64,000 bases of DNA from Bacteroidota bacterium (lineage in GTDB: Bacteria > Bacteroidota > Bacteroidia > 2-12-FULL-35-15). The notes beneath the pieces were generated by a model. That model did no database searches and was not told where the DNA came from. It worked only from the letters and a program-made list of their open reading frames with translations. A program made the position numbers and the translations under genes. The stretch is taken from NCBI GenBank assembly GCA_016722565.1, contig JADKIU010000007.1:303679-367678 (forward strand), in the 5' to 3' direction. Every line of letters begins with the position of its first letter. Position 1 is the first letter of the stretch. This document shows positions 1,214 to 21,203 of the stretch, piece by piece.

Positions 1214-2269
1214 CTATCTTTCTCGTTTACTCGGAGCTATTTTCAAAGGATTAGAAGTAATCTCTTTGTAGAGTTTTCGTACTTTATAAATGTCGATGGC
1301 GGCATATATGGCTCTCCGAAACGATTCTTCTGAAGCAACATTTTTTCCGGCAATATCGTAAGCCGTGCCATGATCGGGAGAGGTTCTTACCACCGGCAAA
1401 CCGGCCGTAAAGTTGACACCCGAATTAAATGAAATAGTTTTGAATGGAATTAATCCCTGGTCGTGATACATGGCCAACACGGCATCAAAATTTTTGTAGG
1501 CTTCATTTCCGAAAAATCCATCCGCAGGATAAGCACCATACACCAACATGCCTTCTTCTTTCAATTGATTGATAGCTGGCAGAATAATATTTTTTTCTTC
1601 ATCGCCAATTACACCATTATCTCCCGCATGCGGATTTAAACCCAACACAGCAATCTTCGGTTTACGAATTTCAAAATCTTGAATCAACGATTGATTTAAT
1701 GCTCTTAGCTTTTTAACGATTTTTTCAGTTGTTAATTCTTGCGCCACTTTGGTAACAGGAATATGTCCGGTAACCACCGCAACACGCAATGTATTACTTA
1801 CCAAAAACATTAAACTATTTCCATTGCCAAATTTATCGTCTAGGTATTCGGTATGACCCGGAAATTTAAAATCTTCTGATTGGATATTTTCTTTATTGAT
1901 TGGTGCGGTAACCAATACATGCACTTTCCCTTGCGCCAATGCATAAGCCGCTGCTTCTAACGATTTAAATGCATACTTTCCGCCATCCGGAGTTTGTTTT
2001 CCCAATTCAATGTTTACGTCTTCCTCGTATACATTAATGAGGTTGGCGCGCTTATGATTTATTTCTGAAAAATCTTTTATCTGATTAAAACTAAAATCTT
2101 CGATGTTCAATGCCTTCCGATGAAAGCTTGCTGTTTTCATTGAACTGAAAACAACAGGAGTGCAGAGCTCAAGCATTTGTGGATCCAGAAATGTTTTGAT
2201 AATCACTTCCATTCCAATTCCATTGATATCACCTTGTGAAATTCCAACAATTATTTTTTCGTCTGACAT
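1214..2269 (-). CDS. pdxA: 4-hydroxythreonine-4-phosphate dehydrogenase
   Basis: 351 aa. Contains GLNPHAGDNG, TAPINKEN and PGHTEYL, and has the PdxA length and layout. Confidence 0.85.
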   Translation of the reverse strand: MSDEKIIVGISQGDINGIGMEVIIKTFLDPQMLELCTPVVFSSMKTASFHRKALNIEDFSFNQIKDFSEINHKRANLINVYEEDVNIELGKQTPDGGKYAFKSLEAAAYALAQGKVHVLVTAPINKENIQSEDFKFPGHTEYLDDKFGNGNSLMFLVSNTLRVAVVTGHIPVTKVAQELTTEKIVKKLRALNQSLIQDFEIRKPKIAVLGLNPHAGDNGVIGDEEKNIILPAINQLKEEGMLVYGAYPADGFFGNEAYKNFDAVLAMYHDQGLIPFKTISFNSGVNFTAGLPVVRTSPDHGTAYDIAGKNVASEESFRRAIYAAIDIYKVRKLYKEITSNPLKIAPSKRER

Positions 2270-5088: not shown

Positions 5089-6237
5089 ATGAATACAGAA
5101 CAATTATTAAAACGGGCATTAAATTTCGAATTTCTAACGCAAGAAGAAGGCGTTTATTTATTTAAACATGCACCTACTGCCGAATTGATATTTGTTGCCA
5201 ACGAACTTCGCAAAATTCAAAAACCGGATTCACTTCCCAATAATGGCAAACCGGGCAAAGTAACTTGGCAAATCGATCGAAATGTAAACACCACCAATGT
5301 ATGTACCGCCAATTGCAAATTCTGTAACTTTTATCGCATTCCCGGACATGCAGAATCGTATATCACCGACATTGAAACGTATAAAGTAAAAATTGATGAA
5401 ACGCTTAAATATGGTGGCGACCAACTGCTTTTGCAAGGCGGTCATCATCCCGATTTAGGATTGAAATTTTATGTCGATACGTTTTCTTCCATCAAAAAAA
5501 TATATCCAAAATTAAAGTTGCATGCACTGGGGCCACCGGAAATTGCACACATCACCAAGCTCGAAAAATCAACACATACGGAAGTATTAAAAGCATTGAA
5601 AGATGCGGGAATGGACAGTTTACCCGGAGCAGGAGCAGAAATATTGAACGACCGCGTACGCAGATTAATTTCAAAAGGAAAATGTACAGGCCGCGAATGG
5701 CTGGACGTAATGCGTGCTGCACATCAATTAAACATTACCACTTCCGCTACCATGATGTTCGGACATATCGAAACCATCGAAGAACGTTTTGAGCATTTGG
5801 TATGGATTCGTCAGGTACAAAGCGAAAAGCCAAAAGATGCAAAAGGTTTCTTAGCATTTATTCCTTGGCCGTTTATGGACGATGGTACTTTATTGAAACG
5901 TCACAAAGGAATCACCAACAATGTAAGCGGTGACGAATACATCCGCATGATAGCAATGAGTCGCATCATGTTACCAAACGTCATTAACATACAAGCAAGT
6001 TGGTTAACCGTAGGAAAAGATGTAGCAAAATTGTGTTTACATGCCGGAGCCAATGATTTTGGCAGCATCATGCTGGAAGAAAATGTGGTTTCAGCGGCAG
6101 GAGCACCTCACCGTTTTACCGCAAAAGGCATTCAGGATGCCATTAAAGAAGCCGGATTTGAACCACAATTGCGTACCCAACAATACGAATACCGTGAGTT
6201 ACCCGCAAACATGGTGGAACAAGTGATTAATTATTAA
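5089..6237 (+). CDS. radical SAM enzyme of the MqnC/MqnE/CofH family, probably from the futalosine menaquinone pathway
   Basis: 382 aa. It has the CxxxCxxC cluster CTANCKFCNF and KVTWQIDRNVNTTNVC, and the overall layout resembles dehypoxanthine futalosine cyclase or aminofutalosine synthase. Confidence 0.6.
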   Translation: MNTEQLLKRALNFEFLTQEEGVYLFKHAPTAELIFVANELRKIQKPDSLPNNGKPGKVTWQIDRNVNTTNVCTANCKFCNFYRIPGHAESYITDIETYKVKIDETLKYGGDQLLLQGGHHPDLGLKFYVDTFSSIKKIYPKLKLHALGPPEIAHITKLEKSTHTEVLKALKDAGMDSLPGAGAEILNDRVRRLISKGKCTGREWLDVMRAAHQLNITTSATMMFGHIETIEERFEHLVWIRQVQSEKPKDAKGFLAFIPWPFMDDGTLLKRHKGITNNVSGDEYIRMIAMSRIMLPNVINIQASWLTVGKDVAKLCLHAGANDFGSIMLEENVVSAAGAPHRFTAKGIQDAIKEAGFEPQLRTQQYEYRELPANMVEQVINY

Positions 6238-15427: not shown

Positions 15428-17224
15428 ATGAAAATGGAGAACATTAGAAATTTTTGCATCATTGCCCACATCGATCACGGAAAGAGTACCCTTGCCGACC
15501 GTTTGCTTGAATATACCAATACCATCAGCAAACGCGACATGCAAGCGCAAGTGCTCGATGATATGGATTTGGAAAAAGAACGCGGAATCACCATTAAGAG
15601 TCATGCCATTCAAATGGACTATGAACTAAATGGTAAAAAATATATTTTCAATTTAATTGATACTCCCGGACACGTAGATTTCTCTTACGAAGTTTCCCGC
15701 TCCATTGCTGCTTGCGAAGGCGCCTTGTTAATTGTAGATGCCGCTCAAGGAATTCAAGCACAAACCATCTCTAACTTATACTTAGCGCTTGAAAATGATT
15801 TAGAGATTATTCCTATCCTAAACAAAATCGATTTACCGAGTGCTGAGCCCGAAATGGTAAAAGATCAAATTGTGGATTTATTGGGTTGTAAACGCGAAGA
15901 AATTATGGCGGCATCCGGAAAAACTGGAACCGGTGTTCACGAAATATTAGCAGCTATTGTTGACCGTATCCCTGCTCCAAAAGGTGACCCCAGCGCTCCC
16001 CTGCAAGCATTAATTTTCGATTCAGTATTTAACTCCTTCAGAGGGATTATCGCTTATTTTAAAATTGTAAATGGTACTCTTAAAAAAGGAGAACGTGTAA
16101 AATTTGTGAATACAGGTGCCGAATACAATGCCGATGAAATTGGTGTTCTCAAATTAAAACAAGAACCCCGAAACCAAGTAAATACAGGTGATGTAGGGTA
16201 TATCATTTCCGGAATTAAAGATGCACGTGAAGTAAAAGTAGGTGATACCATCACCACCACCAACAACCCTTGCGAAGCAGGCATACAAGGTTTTGAAGAT
16301 GTAAAACCAATGGTGTTTGCGGGTATTTATCCGGTGGATACCGAAGACTTTGAAGAATTACGTTACTCCATGGAGAAATTGCAATTGAACGATGCCTCCT
16401 TAACATGGGAGCCGGAATCTTCTGCTGCTTTGGGGTTCGGTTTCCGTTGCGGATTCCTCGGCATGTTGCATATGGAAATTATTCAAGAACGCTTGGAACG
16501 TGAGTTTAACATGACCGTTATCACAACGGTTCCCAACGTTTCCTACCATGCATATACTGCTAAAGGCGATAAATTATTAGTAAACAATCCTTCCGATTTA
16601 CCGGATCCTAGTAAACTGGACCGCGTGGAAGAACCGTATATCAAAGCTCAAGTAATTACCAAAGCCGAATTTGTTGGCCCCATCATGAGCTTGTGTATCA
16701 ACAAACGTGGTATCATTGTAAATCAAAATTATTTGACCACCGACCGCGTTGAATTAATTTTTGAAATGCCGTTGGGTGAAATTGTATTCGATTTTTACGA
16801 CCGCCTAAAAACCATTTCAAAAGGATATGCCTCCTTCGATTATTCTCCGTTAGATTACCGCTCATCCGACTTGGTAAAAATGGATATTCTTTTAAATGCT
16901 GAACCGGTTGATGCGTTGTCATCGTTGATTCACCGCGACAATGCCTACGACTTCGGTAAAAAAATGTGTGAGAAATTAAAAGAATTAATCCCACGTCAGC
17001 AATTCGAAATTCCTATTCAAGCCGCTATCGGAGCAAAAATTATTGCCCGCGAAACCATCAAAGCCATGCGTAAAGATGTGACCGCTAAATGTTATGGTGG
17101 TGATATTTCACGTAAACGTAAATTGTTGGAAAAACAAAAAGAAGGAAAGAAACGGATGCGTTCGGTTGGTAGTGTAGAGATTCCACAAAGTGCATTTATG
17201 GCTGTGTTGAAGTTGAACGATTAA
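15428..17224 (+). CDS. lepA: elongation factor 4 (translational GTPase LepA)
   Basis: Contains [21 protein letters not shown]. 598 aa, with the characteristic LepA C-terminal domain. Confidence 0.95.
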
Positions 17225-17337
17225 TATTTTTTGGAGCAGTTCCAACATTTTTCATAACCAGCTCACACCCGCTTTCCGTTCCAATCTTTTTGTGAAAAAC
17301 AAAAAGGATTTTTACTTCAATCGGGGCTAAAAAGCAT

Positions 17338-18150
17338 TGGGTTGTTTTCCAAAAGTAAACTGATTCGCTGCTATCCCTAAGGCAGATAAGAGCTTCTGTC
17401 ATTTTTCATAGCCCCGATTGCAGAGAAAATCCTCAAGCGATAGCGAAGAGATTGAAACGAAAAGCGGGTGGATGATTAATACGGAGCGAAATAAAAATGC
17501 TCCAAAATATTTTATGTAGTATTAGGGCCTTCCCTTTCAGGGCGGGCTATTCGCTGCAATCTTTTTCGTACCTCAAAAGGATTTACGCTACTATCCCTAA
17601 GGCAGATAAGAGCTCCTGTCATTTTTCACAGCCCCGATTGCAGAGAAAATCCTCAAGCGATAGCGCAGAGATTGAAACGAAAAGCGGGTGAAGGATTAAT
17701 ACGGAGCGAAATAAAAATGCTCCAAAATATTTTATGTATTATTAGGGCCTTCCCTTTCAGGTCGGGCTATTCGCTGCAATCTTTTTCGTACCTCAAAAGG
17801 ATTTTCGCTGCTATCCCTAAGGCGAATCCATCACCTATTAATATTTATAGCCCCGATTGCAGAGAAAATCCTCAAGCGATAGCGCAGAGATTGAAACGAA
17901 AAGCGGGTGGATGATTAATACGGAGCGAAATAAAAATGCTCCAAAATATTTTATGTATTATTAGGGCCTTCCCTTTCAGGTCGGGCTATTCGCTGCAATC
18001 TTTTTCGTACCTCAAAAGGATTTACGCTACTATCCCTAAGGCAGATAAGAGCCTCTGTCATTTTTCATAGCCCCGATTGCAGAGAAAATCCTCAAGCGAT
18101 AGCGCAGAGATTGAAACGAAAAGCGGGTGGATGATTACTCCGGAGAAAAA
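17338..18150. repeat. tandem direct repeat with a roughly 220-bp unit and about 3.7 copies, noncoding
   Basis: The anchor CTATCCCTAA recurs at 17371, 17591, 17811 and 18030. The anchor GCCCCGATTG recurs at 17411, 17631, 17850 and 18070. Copies are more than 95% identical. In copy 3, a segment of about 30 bp at 17823-17848 has been replaced. Confidence 0.9.
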
Positions 18151-18168
18151 TATTAGTGCTTCAAGGAA

Positions 18169-19173
18169 TTAGTGTTTCACAACTTTTCTCACAACAGAAT
18201 TCCCTTTCGAATCATTTATTCGAACAAAATAAATTCCATTCAAAAAATCAGAAATATTTATTTCTGTTTGATTATTTTCTGAATACAACATTCTTCTTCC
18301 AAAAACATCCAATACTTCTATTGAATTAATTTCTAGTTCTGTTTTAATTTGAAATGATCCGGTTGTTGGATTTGGATAAACATTAATATTAATGGATTTA
18401 TAAACCTCATTCAAACCCATGTATAACTGATCGCAATAAATGTTGCTCATGAATGGCGGAGGAGGCCCTCCTGGTGTCACAACCGGAATTCCATTAATGG
18501 AAGCACAATATACATGAAAGCTGTTGACATATTCAAACTCTCCAAAATAACTAAGCGGATTATACAACTGGCCAACTCCTTCAACAAGTGAAGTTACCAC
18601 CATACTCCCTGGGCCACCCGGCTGCATCCAATATTGATCGGTAGTATCAACTAATGCATCTGGAGGCATAAGTCCGTGATAAATACCATTAAAACGAAAG
18701 CGTTTATGGTAAAGACCATCGTGAGGCATCAAAACACTATCAATGGAAGTCACCCATGCAGTATCTAATGTTGCCATCGGAGGCATTTCTGTAACTACCA
18801 ATTGATCATAAAAGCCAAAACCGGAAGTGGCATTCACAGTATCACCAACAGAAAGGTCAAAATCATAAAACACTTTTTCGGTATTGGTAGTAAAAGAATA
18901 GAAATATACTTTCTTATTCAACGTATCATTTCTGATCCCCCCCGTTTTTGAAACAGGCAATACCCCCGAATAAACTATTGCATAATGGTGAGCTCCGATC
19001 AATGTGTCTAAATTAATCTCAGTACGATGAGGAACCCAATAGGAGTCGCCCATCGACAAAGTATAATGGGAATAGCCATAAACAACCATTTTTGATGGAA
19101 ATGGAATATATGATTGCGCTCGAACTCCAATAAAATTAAGCAAGAGAAGGATAATCACTACATTTTTTTTCAT
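18169..19173 (-). CDS. T9SS cargo protein with a type-A CTD, function unknown
   Basis: Signal peptide MKKNVVIILLLLNFIGVRAQ. The C-terminus is VYPNPTTGSFQIKTEL...GIYFVRINDSKGNSVVRKVVK. Confidence 0.7.
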   Translation of the reverse strand: MKKNVVIILLLLNFIGVRAQSYIPFPSKMVVYGYSHYTLSMGDSYWVPHRTEINLDTLIGAHHYAIVYSGVLPVSKTGGIRNDTLNKKVYFYSFTTNTEKVFYDFDLSVGDTVNATSGFGFYDQLVVTEMPPMATLDTAWVTSIDSVLMPHDGLYHKRFRFNGIYHGLMPPDALVDTTDQYWMQPGGPGSMVVTSLVEGVGQLYNPLSYFGEFEYVNSFHVYCASINGIPVVTPGGPPPPFMSNIYCDQLYMGLNEVYKSININVYPNPTTGSFQIKTELEINSIEVLDVFGRRMLYSENNQTEINISDFLNGIYFVRINDSKGNSVVRKVVKH

Positions 19174-19278: not shown

Positions 19279-19764
19279 ATGACTGTCGAAGAATTCAACA
19301 AAACCGTTGATTTACATGCAGATAACCTCTACCGGTTTATCCTTAAGAATATTAAGGATTCTGAAAAGGCGCGCGACATTGTGCAGGATACATATGAGAA
19401 ATTGTGGTTAAAAGTGTCGGAAGTGGAGAGTACAAACGCAAAATCGTACATGTTTACCACTGCTTATCGTACCATGATTGATAGAATACGAAGAGATAAG
19501 AAACAAGGCGAAATGACGGATGCTAATTTGAATAGTTTAAGCTCAAACCGTCAGTATAGCGATTTAAAAGAAATATTAAATGAGGCATTAACCAAATTAC
19601 CTGAAATACAACGCTCCGTAATTTTATTACGCGATTATGAAGGGTATAATTATGCTGAAATTGGAGAAATAACCAACTTAAGTGAGTCACAAGTAAAAGT
19701 ATATATTTTCAGAGCACGTGGGTTTTTAAAGAACTACATTGGAGCAATGGAAAACGTAATATAA
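19279..19764 (+). CDS. ECF-subfamily RNA polymerase sigma-70 factor
   Basis: 161 aa. Region 2 reads DIVQDTYEKLW. Region 4 reads LRDYEGYNYAEIGEITNLSESQVKVYIFRAR. Confidence 0.8.
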   Translation: MTVEEFNKTVDLHADNLYRFILKNIKDSEKARDIVQDTYEKLWLKVSEVESTNAKSYMFTTAYRTMIDRIRRDKKQGEMTDANLNSLSSNRQYSDLKEILNEALTKLPEIQRSVILLRDYEGYNYAEIGEITNLSESQVKVYIFRARGFLKNYIGAMENVI

Positions 19765-19898
19765 CCTCACCCCATAATCCCCTCGCGATAAGAGAGGGGC
19801 GTTTGGTGAGAAGGGTATTAAAAATGAAAAGACAAAAAGTAAATAATTAATCAAATCAAAAAGTCCCTCTCCTTTGGAGAGGATTTAGGGTGAGGTCT

Positions 19899-21203
19899 AT
19901 GAACATTAACAAAAATAACTACGAAGCATTTTTCCTTGATTACCACGAAGGAAATCTTTCACCTCAACAGGTGGCTGACTTGTTATTGTTTGTTGAACAA
20001 CACCCCGAGCTTAGAGAAGAATTTGAAAGTTTTGAGAATGTTACTTTAGACGACTTATCAACTATTTCGTTTGATCAAAAATCTTCTTTGAAAAAAGAAA
20101 TCACACTAGAAAACAGAGAAGAGTACTTCATTCGAAGTATTGAAAACACCCTAACACCTGCTGAAAAAAATTTATTAGACGCATTTATAAAACAACATCC
20201 CCAGTTTTTAAAAGAGCTTGAATTATTTCAAAAAACAAGAGTGCCTGCTGACACAACTATCGTTTTTGAAAACAAAGAAGCATTACAAAAATCCACTGCA
20301 GATGATTTGTTAATTGCCTCCATGGAGGGTCTATTAACCAAGCAAGAAAACATCTTCTTAAATCAACAACTAGCTGTTGATGCAGAAATGCAACACAATT
20401 ACAGTTTGTACAAACAAACAAAATTGGTTGCCGACACCACCATCGTTTTTGAAAACAAAGAAGAATTAAAACGTGAAGAACGAAAAATTATTCCGTTCTA
20501 CTTTTATGTTGCCGCTGCCGCTTCCATTGCCTTGTTAATTGGAATGTTCTTCCTCTACAACAGCACCACACAAGAACAAACCTTTGCGGACAAAACAAAT
20601 GAAACAAAAACTGCTCCTGTTGAAAACAATAATTCAACCGCGGTAATAAAAAACATTCAGCCAATTGAAAATAATCCATCCATAAAAAATCAGATGGCTG
20701 CAACAACTTCATCGATTATTAAAAACAAACGCAACAACGACAGCATCGCTAAAACACCTGTTAATGTAAACGAACAACCCATTTTACCAATTGCAGTGAA
20801 CATCCCTGAGAACAAGAAAGAAATTGAACAAGAAAAAATATTATTGGCAAACAACGAGCAAACAAACAAACCAAACACTGCAACTGAACCAACAAACAAC
20901 GATGCCATTGCAAGTATCATTGGAAAATCAAAAACTATTGGTGCATCAACAGGTTACCTTTCATTGCGTGAATTAGCAACCGAAAAAATAAAAGAAAAAA
21001 CATTGGATGAAGAAACCCTTGCCATACAAAAGAAAAATGGTCGCGTTAAACGTTTCTCGGGTTGGGACTTCGCACAAATTGTTACGAGAGGTATCAGCAA
21101 AATGACCGGCAGAGATGTGGAAGTAAAACCAACCTACAGTGATGATGGTGATGTAACAGCTTATGCTTTAGGAAATGGCATTCAAATATCGAGAGGAAAA
21201 TAA
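19899..21203 (+). CDS. putative anti-sigma factor, single-pass membrane protein
   Basis: It sits immediately downstream of the ECF sigma gene. It has one transmembrane segment (IIPFYFYVAAAASIALLIGMFFLY) and an internal duplicated ADTTIVFENKE motif. The ATG at 19899 is in frame with track ORF 19890. Confidence 0.5.
   Translation: MNINKNNYEAFFLDYHEGNLSPQQVADLLLFVEQHPELREEFESFENVTLDDLSTISFDQKSSLKKEITLENREEYFIRSIENTLTPAEKNLLDAFIKQHPQFLKELELFQKTRVPADTTIVFENKEALQKSTADDLLIASMEGLLTKQENIFLNQQLAVDAEMQHNYSLYKQTKLVADTTIVFENKEELKREERKIIPFYFYVAAAASIALLIGMFFLYNSTTQEQTFADKTNETKTAPVENNNSTAVIKNIQPIENNPSIKNQMAATTSSIIKNKRNNDSIAKTPVNVNEQPILPIAVNIPENKKEIEQEKILLANNEQTNKPNTATEPTNNDAIASIIGKSKTIGASTGYLSLRELATEKIKEKTLDEETLAIQKKNGRVKRFSGWDFAQIVTRGISKMTGRDVEVKPTYSDDGDVTAYALGNGIQISRGK

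Follow-up and report, generated by a model that had tools for sequence, protein, structure and literature searches.

The stretch of DNA analyzed here, hereafter the window, is 64 kb of contig JADKIU010000007.1 from an uncultured Bacteroidia lineage. The feature of interest within it is the 944-bp gap that separates the stop codon of lepA (position 17224) from that of its minus-strand neighbor (18169..19173), a gene whose product carries a C-terminal sorting domain of the type IX secretion system (T9SS) and which is called the T9SS-tail gene here. With lepA on the plus strand and the T9SS-tail gene on the minus strand, their stop codons facing each other, both genes converge on what lies between them. 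A previous reading made from the letters alone (the sequence-only reading) had described this gap as a roughly 220-bp tandem array, and Tandem Repeats Finder (TRF) agrees, reporting a single array with a period of 220 bp, 3.6 copies, 92% matches, and no indels. A gap-free repeat search returned spacings of 220/219 and 220/220/219, and also matched 17266-17333 in inverted orientation in every unit.

The units are less uniform than first described. Their identity exceeds the 95% claimed for them beyond the first 45 nt (96-98.5%) but is lower overall (89-97%), because the segment at 17823-17848 has been replaced in unit 3 by unrelated sequence. This replacement, already recognized from the letters, matches nothing else in the window when up to 3 mismatches are allowed, and its 18-nt core has no exact match in the 201 loci fetched for comparison. 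Every unit of the window also carries private substitutions. The palindrome AAAATATTTT and the motifs CCCTAA and TTAGGG each recur once per unit, as had been noted. The complementary 8-mers GATTGCAG and CTGCAATC are present as well, but their starts lie 138 nt apart rather than about 110 nt, and they are the arms of the inverted hairpins described below. Open reading frames (ORFs) of 64, 80, and 44 aa in the array differ from unit to unit, in keeping with its earlier classification as noncoding.

Contrary to the sequence-only reading, which could match the array to no RNA family, a scan of the window with Rfam 15 at gathering thresholds returned eight matches, all of them to Flavo-1 (RF01705) and all in this spacer (Table 1). 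The matches span the full-length model (1-76) and score 43.5-68.1 bits, above the gathering score of 42. Even with E <= 10 allowed, no hit falls on the strand opposite any of them. Matches to MIR7533, TCV_H4, and snoRNA models (E > 0.005) fell far under their gathering scores and were set aside as chance matches to palindromic sequence. Along the spacer the eight hairpins follow the strand order - + - + - + - +, and the linkers between match boundaries alternate as well, 60 nt and then 14-20 nt. The 220-bp stretch that had been taken for a single unit is thus an inverted doublet of two hairpins, which belong to different subtypes and lie on opposite strands. The inverted partial copy that had been placed at 17265-17338 proved to be the best-scoring Flavo-1 match of all (68 bits), with arms 88-91% complementary to the unit. 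The spacer is therefore a cluster of eight Flavo-1 hairpins in strictly alternating orientation. It does not have the anatomy of a clustered regularly interspaced short palindromic repeat (CRISPR) array, as the sequences between the hairpins are themselves repeated and one 26-nt segment alone differs.

Table 1. Features of the lepA spacer and its flanking genes, in window coordinates
Feature	Coordinates	Strand	Evidence
lepA, 598 aa, left flank	15428..17224	+	ORF; Pfam GTP_EFTU, EFG_C, LepA_C on identical protein
3' tail of first type B element; reverse complement ...CTGCTCCAAAAAATA; abuts lepA stop codon	17225..17260	-	TTTTGGAGCA at 17229; inverted repeats; tail consensus
Flavo-1 type B (foot CCG...CGG), best-scoring copy	17261..17332	-	RF01705 68.1 bits; R1 66 bits
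Spacer: degenerate type A remnant (17364-17383, TTCGCTGCTATCCCTAAGGC) and first linker B	17333..17405	.	Repeat family, terminator scan, sequence
Whole tandem array; unit = linker B, type B(+) hairpin, linker A/tail, type A(-) hairpin	17366..18152	.	TRF, repeat search, alignment
Flavo-1 type B, copy 1	17406..17475	+	RF01705 45.1 bits; R1 64.4 bits
Linker A: 3' tail, in its long form, of the type B element before it; GGAGC...GCTCC and TGCTCCAAAATATTTT	17476..17535	+	Tail consensus, alignment
Flavo-1 type A (foot GGG...CCC, 3' flank CCCGNCC), copy 1	17536..17611	-	RF01705 47.8 bits
Flavo-1 type B, copy 2	17626..17695	+	RF01705 43.5 bits
Flavo-1 type A, copy 2	17756..17828	-	RF01705 54.0 bits
Replaced linker B of unit 3, 26 nt; between hairpin stems, not inside them	17823..17848	.	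Alignment
Flavo-1 type B, copy 3	17845..17914	+	RF01705 46.5 bits
Flavo-1 type A, copy 3	17975..18050	-	RF01705 51.5 bits
Flavo-1 type B, copy 4, last hairpin; diverged tail reaches the neighbor's stop codon	18065..18134	+	RF01705 45.4 bits
T9SS-tail gene, 334 aa, right flank	18169..19173	-	ORF; Pfam PF18962 (Por_Secre_tail) on identical protein

The two subtypes are told apart by the foot of the stem and its flanks. Type B, which comprises all plus-strand copies and the first minus-strand copy, has its CCG...CGG foot preceded by TAGCC. In type A, which comprises the remaining minus-strand copies, the GGG...CCC foot is preceded by GCGTNA. After it comes CCCGNCC, which reads CCCGACC in two of the copies and CCCGCCC in the other. 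Linker A repeats at 17696-17755 and 17915-17974, with TGCTCCAAAA at 17498, 17718, and 17937, and a diverged copy of it at 18135-18168 abuts the stop codon of the T9SS-tail gene. At either end of the cluster, the tail of the outermost type B copy is directed outward and runs up to the stop codon of the adjoining convergent gene.

We aligned 24 sequences, comprising the 8 window copies, 1 from Flavobacterium stagni (locus L055), and 15 published seeds, and built a covariance model (R1) from this alignment. Ninety percent of cells are paired, against 35-45% in slid controls, 12 of the 15 base pairs show double changes, and none of 500 shuffles reaches the observed value. The Flavo-1 family itself is already known, having been found by comparative genomics with 239 representatives and rated a probable RNA that is not cis-regulatory, with no function proposed (Weinberg et al. 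2010, PMC2864571). What the window adds is a new instance whose arrangement is unusual for the family, being 1 of about 120 distinct loci.

The family is dispersed, and its copies elsewhere are almost all solitary. Searching with a 23-mer of the type B arm matched at least 120 metagenome contigs, nearly all of which carry a single hairpin by R1, and the sole four-hairpin alternating locus among them is the same lepA locus in a sister strain. One other contig in the roughly 120 distinct loci has two hairpins within 200 nt, a looser inverted pair 175 nt apart (L193 1510-1589, minus strand, and 1765-1839, plus strand). The sequence-only reading had allowed that its interest would lapse if the unit were a common, untranscribed interspersed repeat. 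At the level of the family this is largely what we found, the hairpin being widely dispersed, but the composite 220-bp unit was seen at this locus only. A search of a phage collection gave no match.

Gene context was counted after collapsing duplicates to 119 distinct loci. Flavo-1 lies antisense to codirectional flanking genes at 36 of these and sense to them at 25, between convergent genes at 15, between divergent genes at 14, inside crude ORFs at 8, and at contig edges at 21. An apparent orientation bias in the raw counts (40 antisense versus 15 sense) did not survive deduplication (36 versus 25, p = 0.2), and these contexts match those of background intergenic regions (60 nt or longer), of which 288 are codirectional, 65 convergent, and 81 divergent. 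Flavo-1 is thus strongly extragenic and indifferent both to orientation and to the promoter or terminator side of genes. The transcriptome of F. psychrophilum agrees with this orientation-independent placement: Flavo-1 matches occur there in sense as well as antisense position relative to transcribed regions, and many fall outside any (PMC9723704).

The flanks of 95 aligned hairpins from other distinct loci (L082-L201) show that the element has sharp boundaries, TAGCCCC on the 5' side and GCTCC(T)AAAAA on the 3' side. Type B copies share a conserved 3' tail, ...GCGGGA(AATA)GCTCC(T)AAAAA, which follows the hairpin directly or past a 30-40-nt insert. Since this tail falls outside the Rfam model, the real type B element measures about 90-120 nt. 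Identical apical loops (for example TTTTTTGAAAAAAAA or GCCGGGGTTCGGC) and tails mark subfamilies that recur on many contigs, the pattern expected of proliferation from master copies. A Flavo-1-like hairpin scoring 54.6 bits with R1 was also found far outside the Bacteroidota, on plasmids of Paraclostridium bifermentans (Bacillota; NZ_CP094939.1, L213 571-646; also CP124692.1 and NZ_CP094937.1).

The lepA gene has Flavo-1 neighbors in other genera as well. Matches on the lepA strand lie less than 230 nt upstream of lepA at L052 9826-9899, L055 9849-9923, L075 9817-9869, and L039 3741-3814, with a weak match at L005 9775-9872. The carriers are several Flavobacteriia and Sphingobacteriia, and about 1 match would be expected there by chance, R1 having returned only about 12 matches in 80 lepA-centered GTDB loci (1.42 Mb). 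In F. stagni (L055) a further Flavo-1 lies 97 nt downstream of lepA. There may therefore be a recurrent association of Flavo-1 with lepA. These positions are covariance-model matches; a loose regular expression for hairpins near lepA gave mostly noise and was abandoned.

Comparison of the locus among relatives places the array at a junction of gene loss. The closest LepA relatives in GTDB are Bacteroidia/Bacteroidota metagenome-assembled genomes (MAGs), the best of which has 95% amino acid identity, followed by MAGs at 88% and 85% and then Pedobacter at about 81%, which fits the known range of Flavo-1 (Bacteroidota, mostly Flavobacteriia). In the closest of these genomes (L002) there is no spacer, the lepA stop overlapping the stop of a CCP_MauG-like gene. 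Flavo-1 is absent within 10 kb of this site and from the next six loci; the array is lineage-specific. The gene order in relatives is an extracytoplasmic function (ECF) sigma factor, two T9SS-tail genes, the CCP_MauG-like cytochrome c peroxidase, and lepA. The lineage of the window is without the MauG gene and one T9SS gene, and the array sits exactly at that junction (17225-19173 in the window versus 6827-8827 in L002 and 3386-6416 in L216).

Within the lineage, whose assemblies carry an identical ECF sigma protein, the array varies in length. Over the last ~500 nt of lepA, L001 is 98.6% and L116 96.0% identical to the window, and three alleles of the spacer were recovered: one of 285 bp in L204, whose 2 hairpins form a single inverted type B pair; one of 505 bp in L001, L202, L203, L205, L116/L209, and L210, with 4 hairpins; and the 944 bp with 8 hairpins of the window. 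From one allele to the next the spacer lengthens by 220 and then 439 bp. In L116 the two type B(+) copies differ from each other. The B(+) copy of L204 is the same as the second of them, as expected of the gain or loss of one unit by recombination between repeats. The comparison alleles all come from short-read metagenome assemblies (k = 141, below the 220-bp period), in which repeats can collapse. Three Logan short-read contigs end within the array (L206 1-60, L207 1-60, and L212 1757-1783), as would be expected if the samples contain multi-copy alleles that could not be bridged in assembly.

A second feature of the neighborhood is a conserved gene pair (window 19279-21203). After the ECF sigma-70 gene (161 aa) comes a 437-aa ORF with no Pfam hit (434 aa as called on related contigs), and the two are kept beside the T9SS-tail gene in all related contigs. 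They could be a sigma/anti-sigma pair.

Taken together, we put at about 60% the probability that the spacer contains a cluster formed by a dispersed palindromic DNA repeat, similar to the repetitive extragenic palindromic (REP) elements and bacterial interspersed mosaic elements (BIMEs) of other bacteria, that was amplified locally by unequal recombination. Flavo-1 would in this case be a dispersed extragenic palindromic repeat with a DNA-level behavior like that of REP elements. An inverted pair of its hairpins would have been amplified at the lepA locus in 220-bp steps, and could also be contracted, with the direct repeats serving as substrate for unequal homologous recombination or replication slippage. 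The 220-bp unit itself behaves as a minisatellite, so that the suggestion in the sequence-only reading of a minisatellite or element of the miniature inverted-repeat transposable element (MITE) kind was close to the mark. If the hairpins have a function, it is probably a passive one that does not depend on orientation. Lying at the 3' ends of both convergent transcripts, they could insulate or stabilize these transcripts.

Several observations weigh against such a DNA repeat cluster. The family is rare in this lineage: R1 run with filters off found no further copy in the window, and about 60 kb from the three closest relatives contained no Flavo-1. A regular expression for the HUH...Y..NP signature of Y1 and REP-associated tyrosine transposases (RAYTs) found none in 2.44 Mb of loci, where at most about 1 is expected by chance. 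A tblastn search of the same 2.44 Mb with an E. coli RayT sequence was likewise empty, with the same chance expectation. The REPs that flank Bacteroidetes TnpAREP subclass 2.6 genes are unlike Flavo-1 (PMC6006769), and Flavo-1 hairpins are longer than classical REPs and without the unpaired GTAG/CGTC tag. The alleles on which the copy-number comparison depends are all from short-read assemblies and could include repeat collapses. A search for a clean pair of filled and empty sites found none, so that the mobility of Flavo-1 is an inference: in L002 lepA overlaps the CCP_MauG-like gene, and the homologs of the T9SS gene (L214-L217) have a different gene order around them. Flavo-1 also recurs a short way upstream of lepA in several other genera, a hint that its role there may be tied to position. 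Finally, on the Rfam sense strand the apical stems contain 33 G.U against 7 A.C pairs, counts that are partly non-independent, which hints at some RNA-level constraint; it is too weak to decide between RNA and DNA, because about half of the G.U cases are the loop-closing G.T of one subfamily.

The alternative that survives best, although we consider it unlikely, is that the hairpins are cis-acting 3' untranslated region (UTR) structures that stop or stabilize the lepA and T9SS-gene transcripts, with additional copies favored by selection. In its favor are the position of the spacer between convergent genes and the outermost type B tails, which abut both stop codons. At codirectional antisense loci elsewhere the median distance from the hairpin to the upstream stop is 46 nt. 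Beside the 47%-identical homolog of the T9SS gene in another organism (L217), a Flavo-1 hairpin (6057-6130) lies 19 nt past the stop, in opposite orientation relative to the gene. Folding of the spacer can also be read in this way. The sequence-only reading had anticipated that a read-through transcript could form long hairpins, and the whole 944 nt does fold well (z = -4.3), but this is because inverted copies pair with each other; for a single unit, folding is not improved over shuffled sequence on either strand (z = +0.3 and -1.1). The sequence around the hairpins is the reverse of a terminator, the flanks being T-rich on the 5' side and A-rich on the 3' side of the sense strand, with GGCTAaaa after the hairpin on the other strand. 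The Flavo-1 hairpins are not followed by the U-tract of an intrinsic terminator, and a weak terminator-like site occurs in linker B alone (17381-17400 and 18040-18059). As this is the sole feature of its kind, the earlier suggestion of a promoter or terminator amplification finds no support. Placement in divergent, promoter-bearing regions is close to chance (14 observed versus ~17 expected) and the family shows no orientation bias, both of which count against this alternative. So does the coexistence of strains with 2, 4, or 8 hairpins, which means that selection on copy number is not tight.

More improbable is a tandem array of trans-acting small RNA (sRNA) genes, in which each hairpin would be made independently, another of the identities proposed in the sequence-only reading. 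Rfam classifies the family as 'Gene; sRNA', and both the strong covariation of the hairpin and the G.U excess on the annotated strand are compatible with a functional transcript, but the covariation would equally fit a hairpin formed by DNA. The copies alternate strands, the hairpins have no U-tract after them, and the units are free of sigma-70 and Bacteroidota-type promoters. No sigma-70-like promoter was found in 16900-18500, where 3.9 are expected from shuffles, no unit contains the Bacteroidota-type TTG...TAnnTTTG motif, and the sole -7-like box (17357, minus strand) lies outside the repeat. Across the family there is no orientation bias, copies are squeezed within 8-50 nt of neighboring genes, and many of the matches in F. 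psychrophilum are untranscribed or antisense (PMC9723704).

We give slightly less credence still to a MITE or palindrome-associated transposable element (PATE), that is, a miniature derivative of an insertion sequence (IS) with terminal inverted repeats and target-site duplications that repeatedly inserted into itself. The sharp conserved boundaries, the subfamilies with identical loops across contigs, and the hairpin on Paraclostridium plasmids outside the phylum would all suit such an element. The 95 aligned flanks contain no target-site duplication, just a weak TTTAG/CTAAA complementarity of the ends, the units are in register as in a tandem duplication (220/219/220) rather than nested insertions, and no transposase was found nearby in the 2.44 Mb of loci. 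Least probable of all is an assembly artifact, in which the 3.6-copy array is an expansion or the shorter alleles are collapses: the comparison contigs are all short-read with k = 141 below the period, and three Logan contigs break inside the array, but the private substitutions of each window unit and the unique 26-nt replacement in unit 3, the mix of variants in unit 1 of L001 (impossible by collapse of the window allele at k = 141, as the identical stretch between the relevant units is ~63 nt), the difference between the two type B(+) copies of L116, and the identity of the L204 copy to the second of these all speak against it.

Returning to the REP/BIME-like cluster, a bolder extension of it can be put forward tentatively, though we regard it as doubtful. 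Flavo-1 might be a non-autonomous mobile DNA element of the Bacteroidota, mis-filed for 15 years as an sRNA and moved by a putative single-strand-DNA transposase. The mobile entity would be the hairpin together with its 3' tail ending in GCTCC(T)AAAAA, which would also have reached clostridial plasmids. If this is true, the lepA locus, with its 2, 4, or 8 copies in sister strains, is a natural hotspot of the BIME or REPIN kind (REPINs are discussed below) in which DNA-level dynamics could be followed.

For the locus itself, identification of the hairpins removes a false lead, in that the array is a cluster of a catalogued motif and not an unknown family of RNA genes. For the family, it provides modest evidence on the nature of Flavo-1, favoring a REP-like DNA repeat over a small RNA because the copies alternate strands, lack promoters, are spread through intergenic regions independently of orientation, form subfamilies with shared loops, and are polymorphic in number. 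Flavo-1 is listed among the most abundant sRNA families in Rfam, without a function (PMC9029176), and these observations therefore matter for the interpretation of such counts. In addition, strains of this uncultured Bacteroidia lineage could be told apart by the 220-bp length polymorphism, used as a marker.

In structure the hairpins of the window are typical of Flavo-1, having the same bulged stem, conserved GATTGNAGCGGAAA-like arms, and variable apical loop, and both feet, CCG...CGG and GGG...CCC, are already present in the published seed alignment (PMC2864571). They depart from the family as it is described in two respects. Flavo-1 is filed as a small-RNA gene, and its copies are almost always single across the ~120 distinct loci, whereas eight alternate here in one spacer, and the conserved 3' tail of type B is not covered by the Rfam model.

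The closest parallels are found among REP-based systems. In Pseudomonas, REPINs are REP doublets that form hairpins, and the doublet is the dispersed, replicating unit. The minimal allele of L204 and the left end of the window are likewise an inverted type B pair, with arms that are 88% complementary and copies that pair in the predicted fold. Elsewhere in the Flavo-1 family, unlike REPINs, singletons dominate and the doublet is seen at this locus only. The E. coli BIME-2 is a still closer match in layout, being a tandem reiteration of REPs that alternate in orientation and are separated by linkers of alternating type, and E. coli REPs are known to stabilize upstream mRNA. In the window, two subtypes alternate in orientation, two linkers alternate (60 nt and 14-20 nt), and the doublet is repeated in tandem; its copy number varies between strains, and the cluster is located at gene 3' ends. 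The differences are that Flavo-1 hairpins are ~70 nt long with internal loops rather than 35-nt REPs, carry no GTAG tag, and occur in a different phylum. To our knowledge, no association of Flavo-1 with a RAYT has been described.

A classical REP is a short imperfect palindrome of 20-40 nt whose 5' tag, GT[AG]G or CGTC, is unpaired. The hairpins of the spacer, at ~70 nt and with no unpaired GTAG at the foot, do not have this form. Flavo-1, with neither tag at an unpaired foot, is also absent from the families catalogued among GTAG/CGTC-tagged REPs (Di Nocera et al. 2013, PMC3733652). The same catalog describes clusters in which REP dimers are reiterated in tandem together with flanking DNA segments (PMC3733652), and this is the anatomy of the lepA spacer. 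As Flavo-1 departs from classical REPs in size and tag, we do not call the array a REP or BIME cluster, but describe it as one that works like them.

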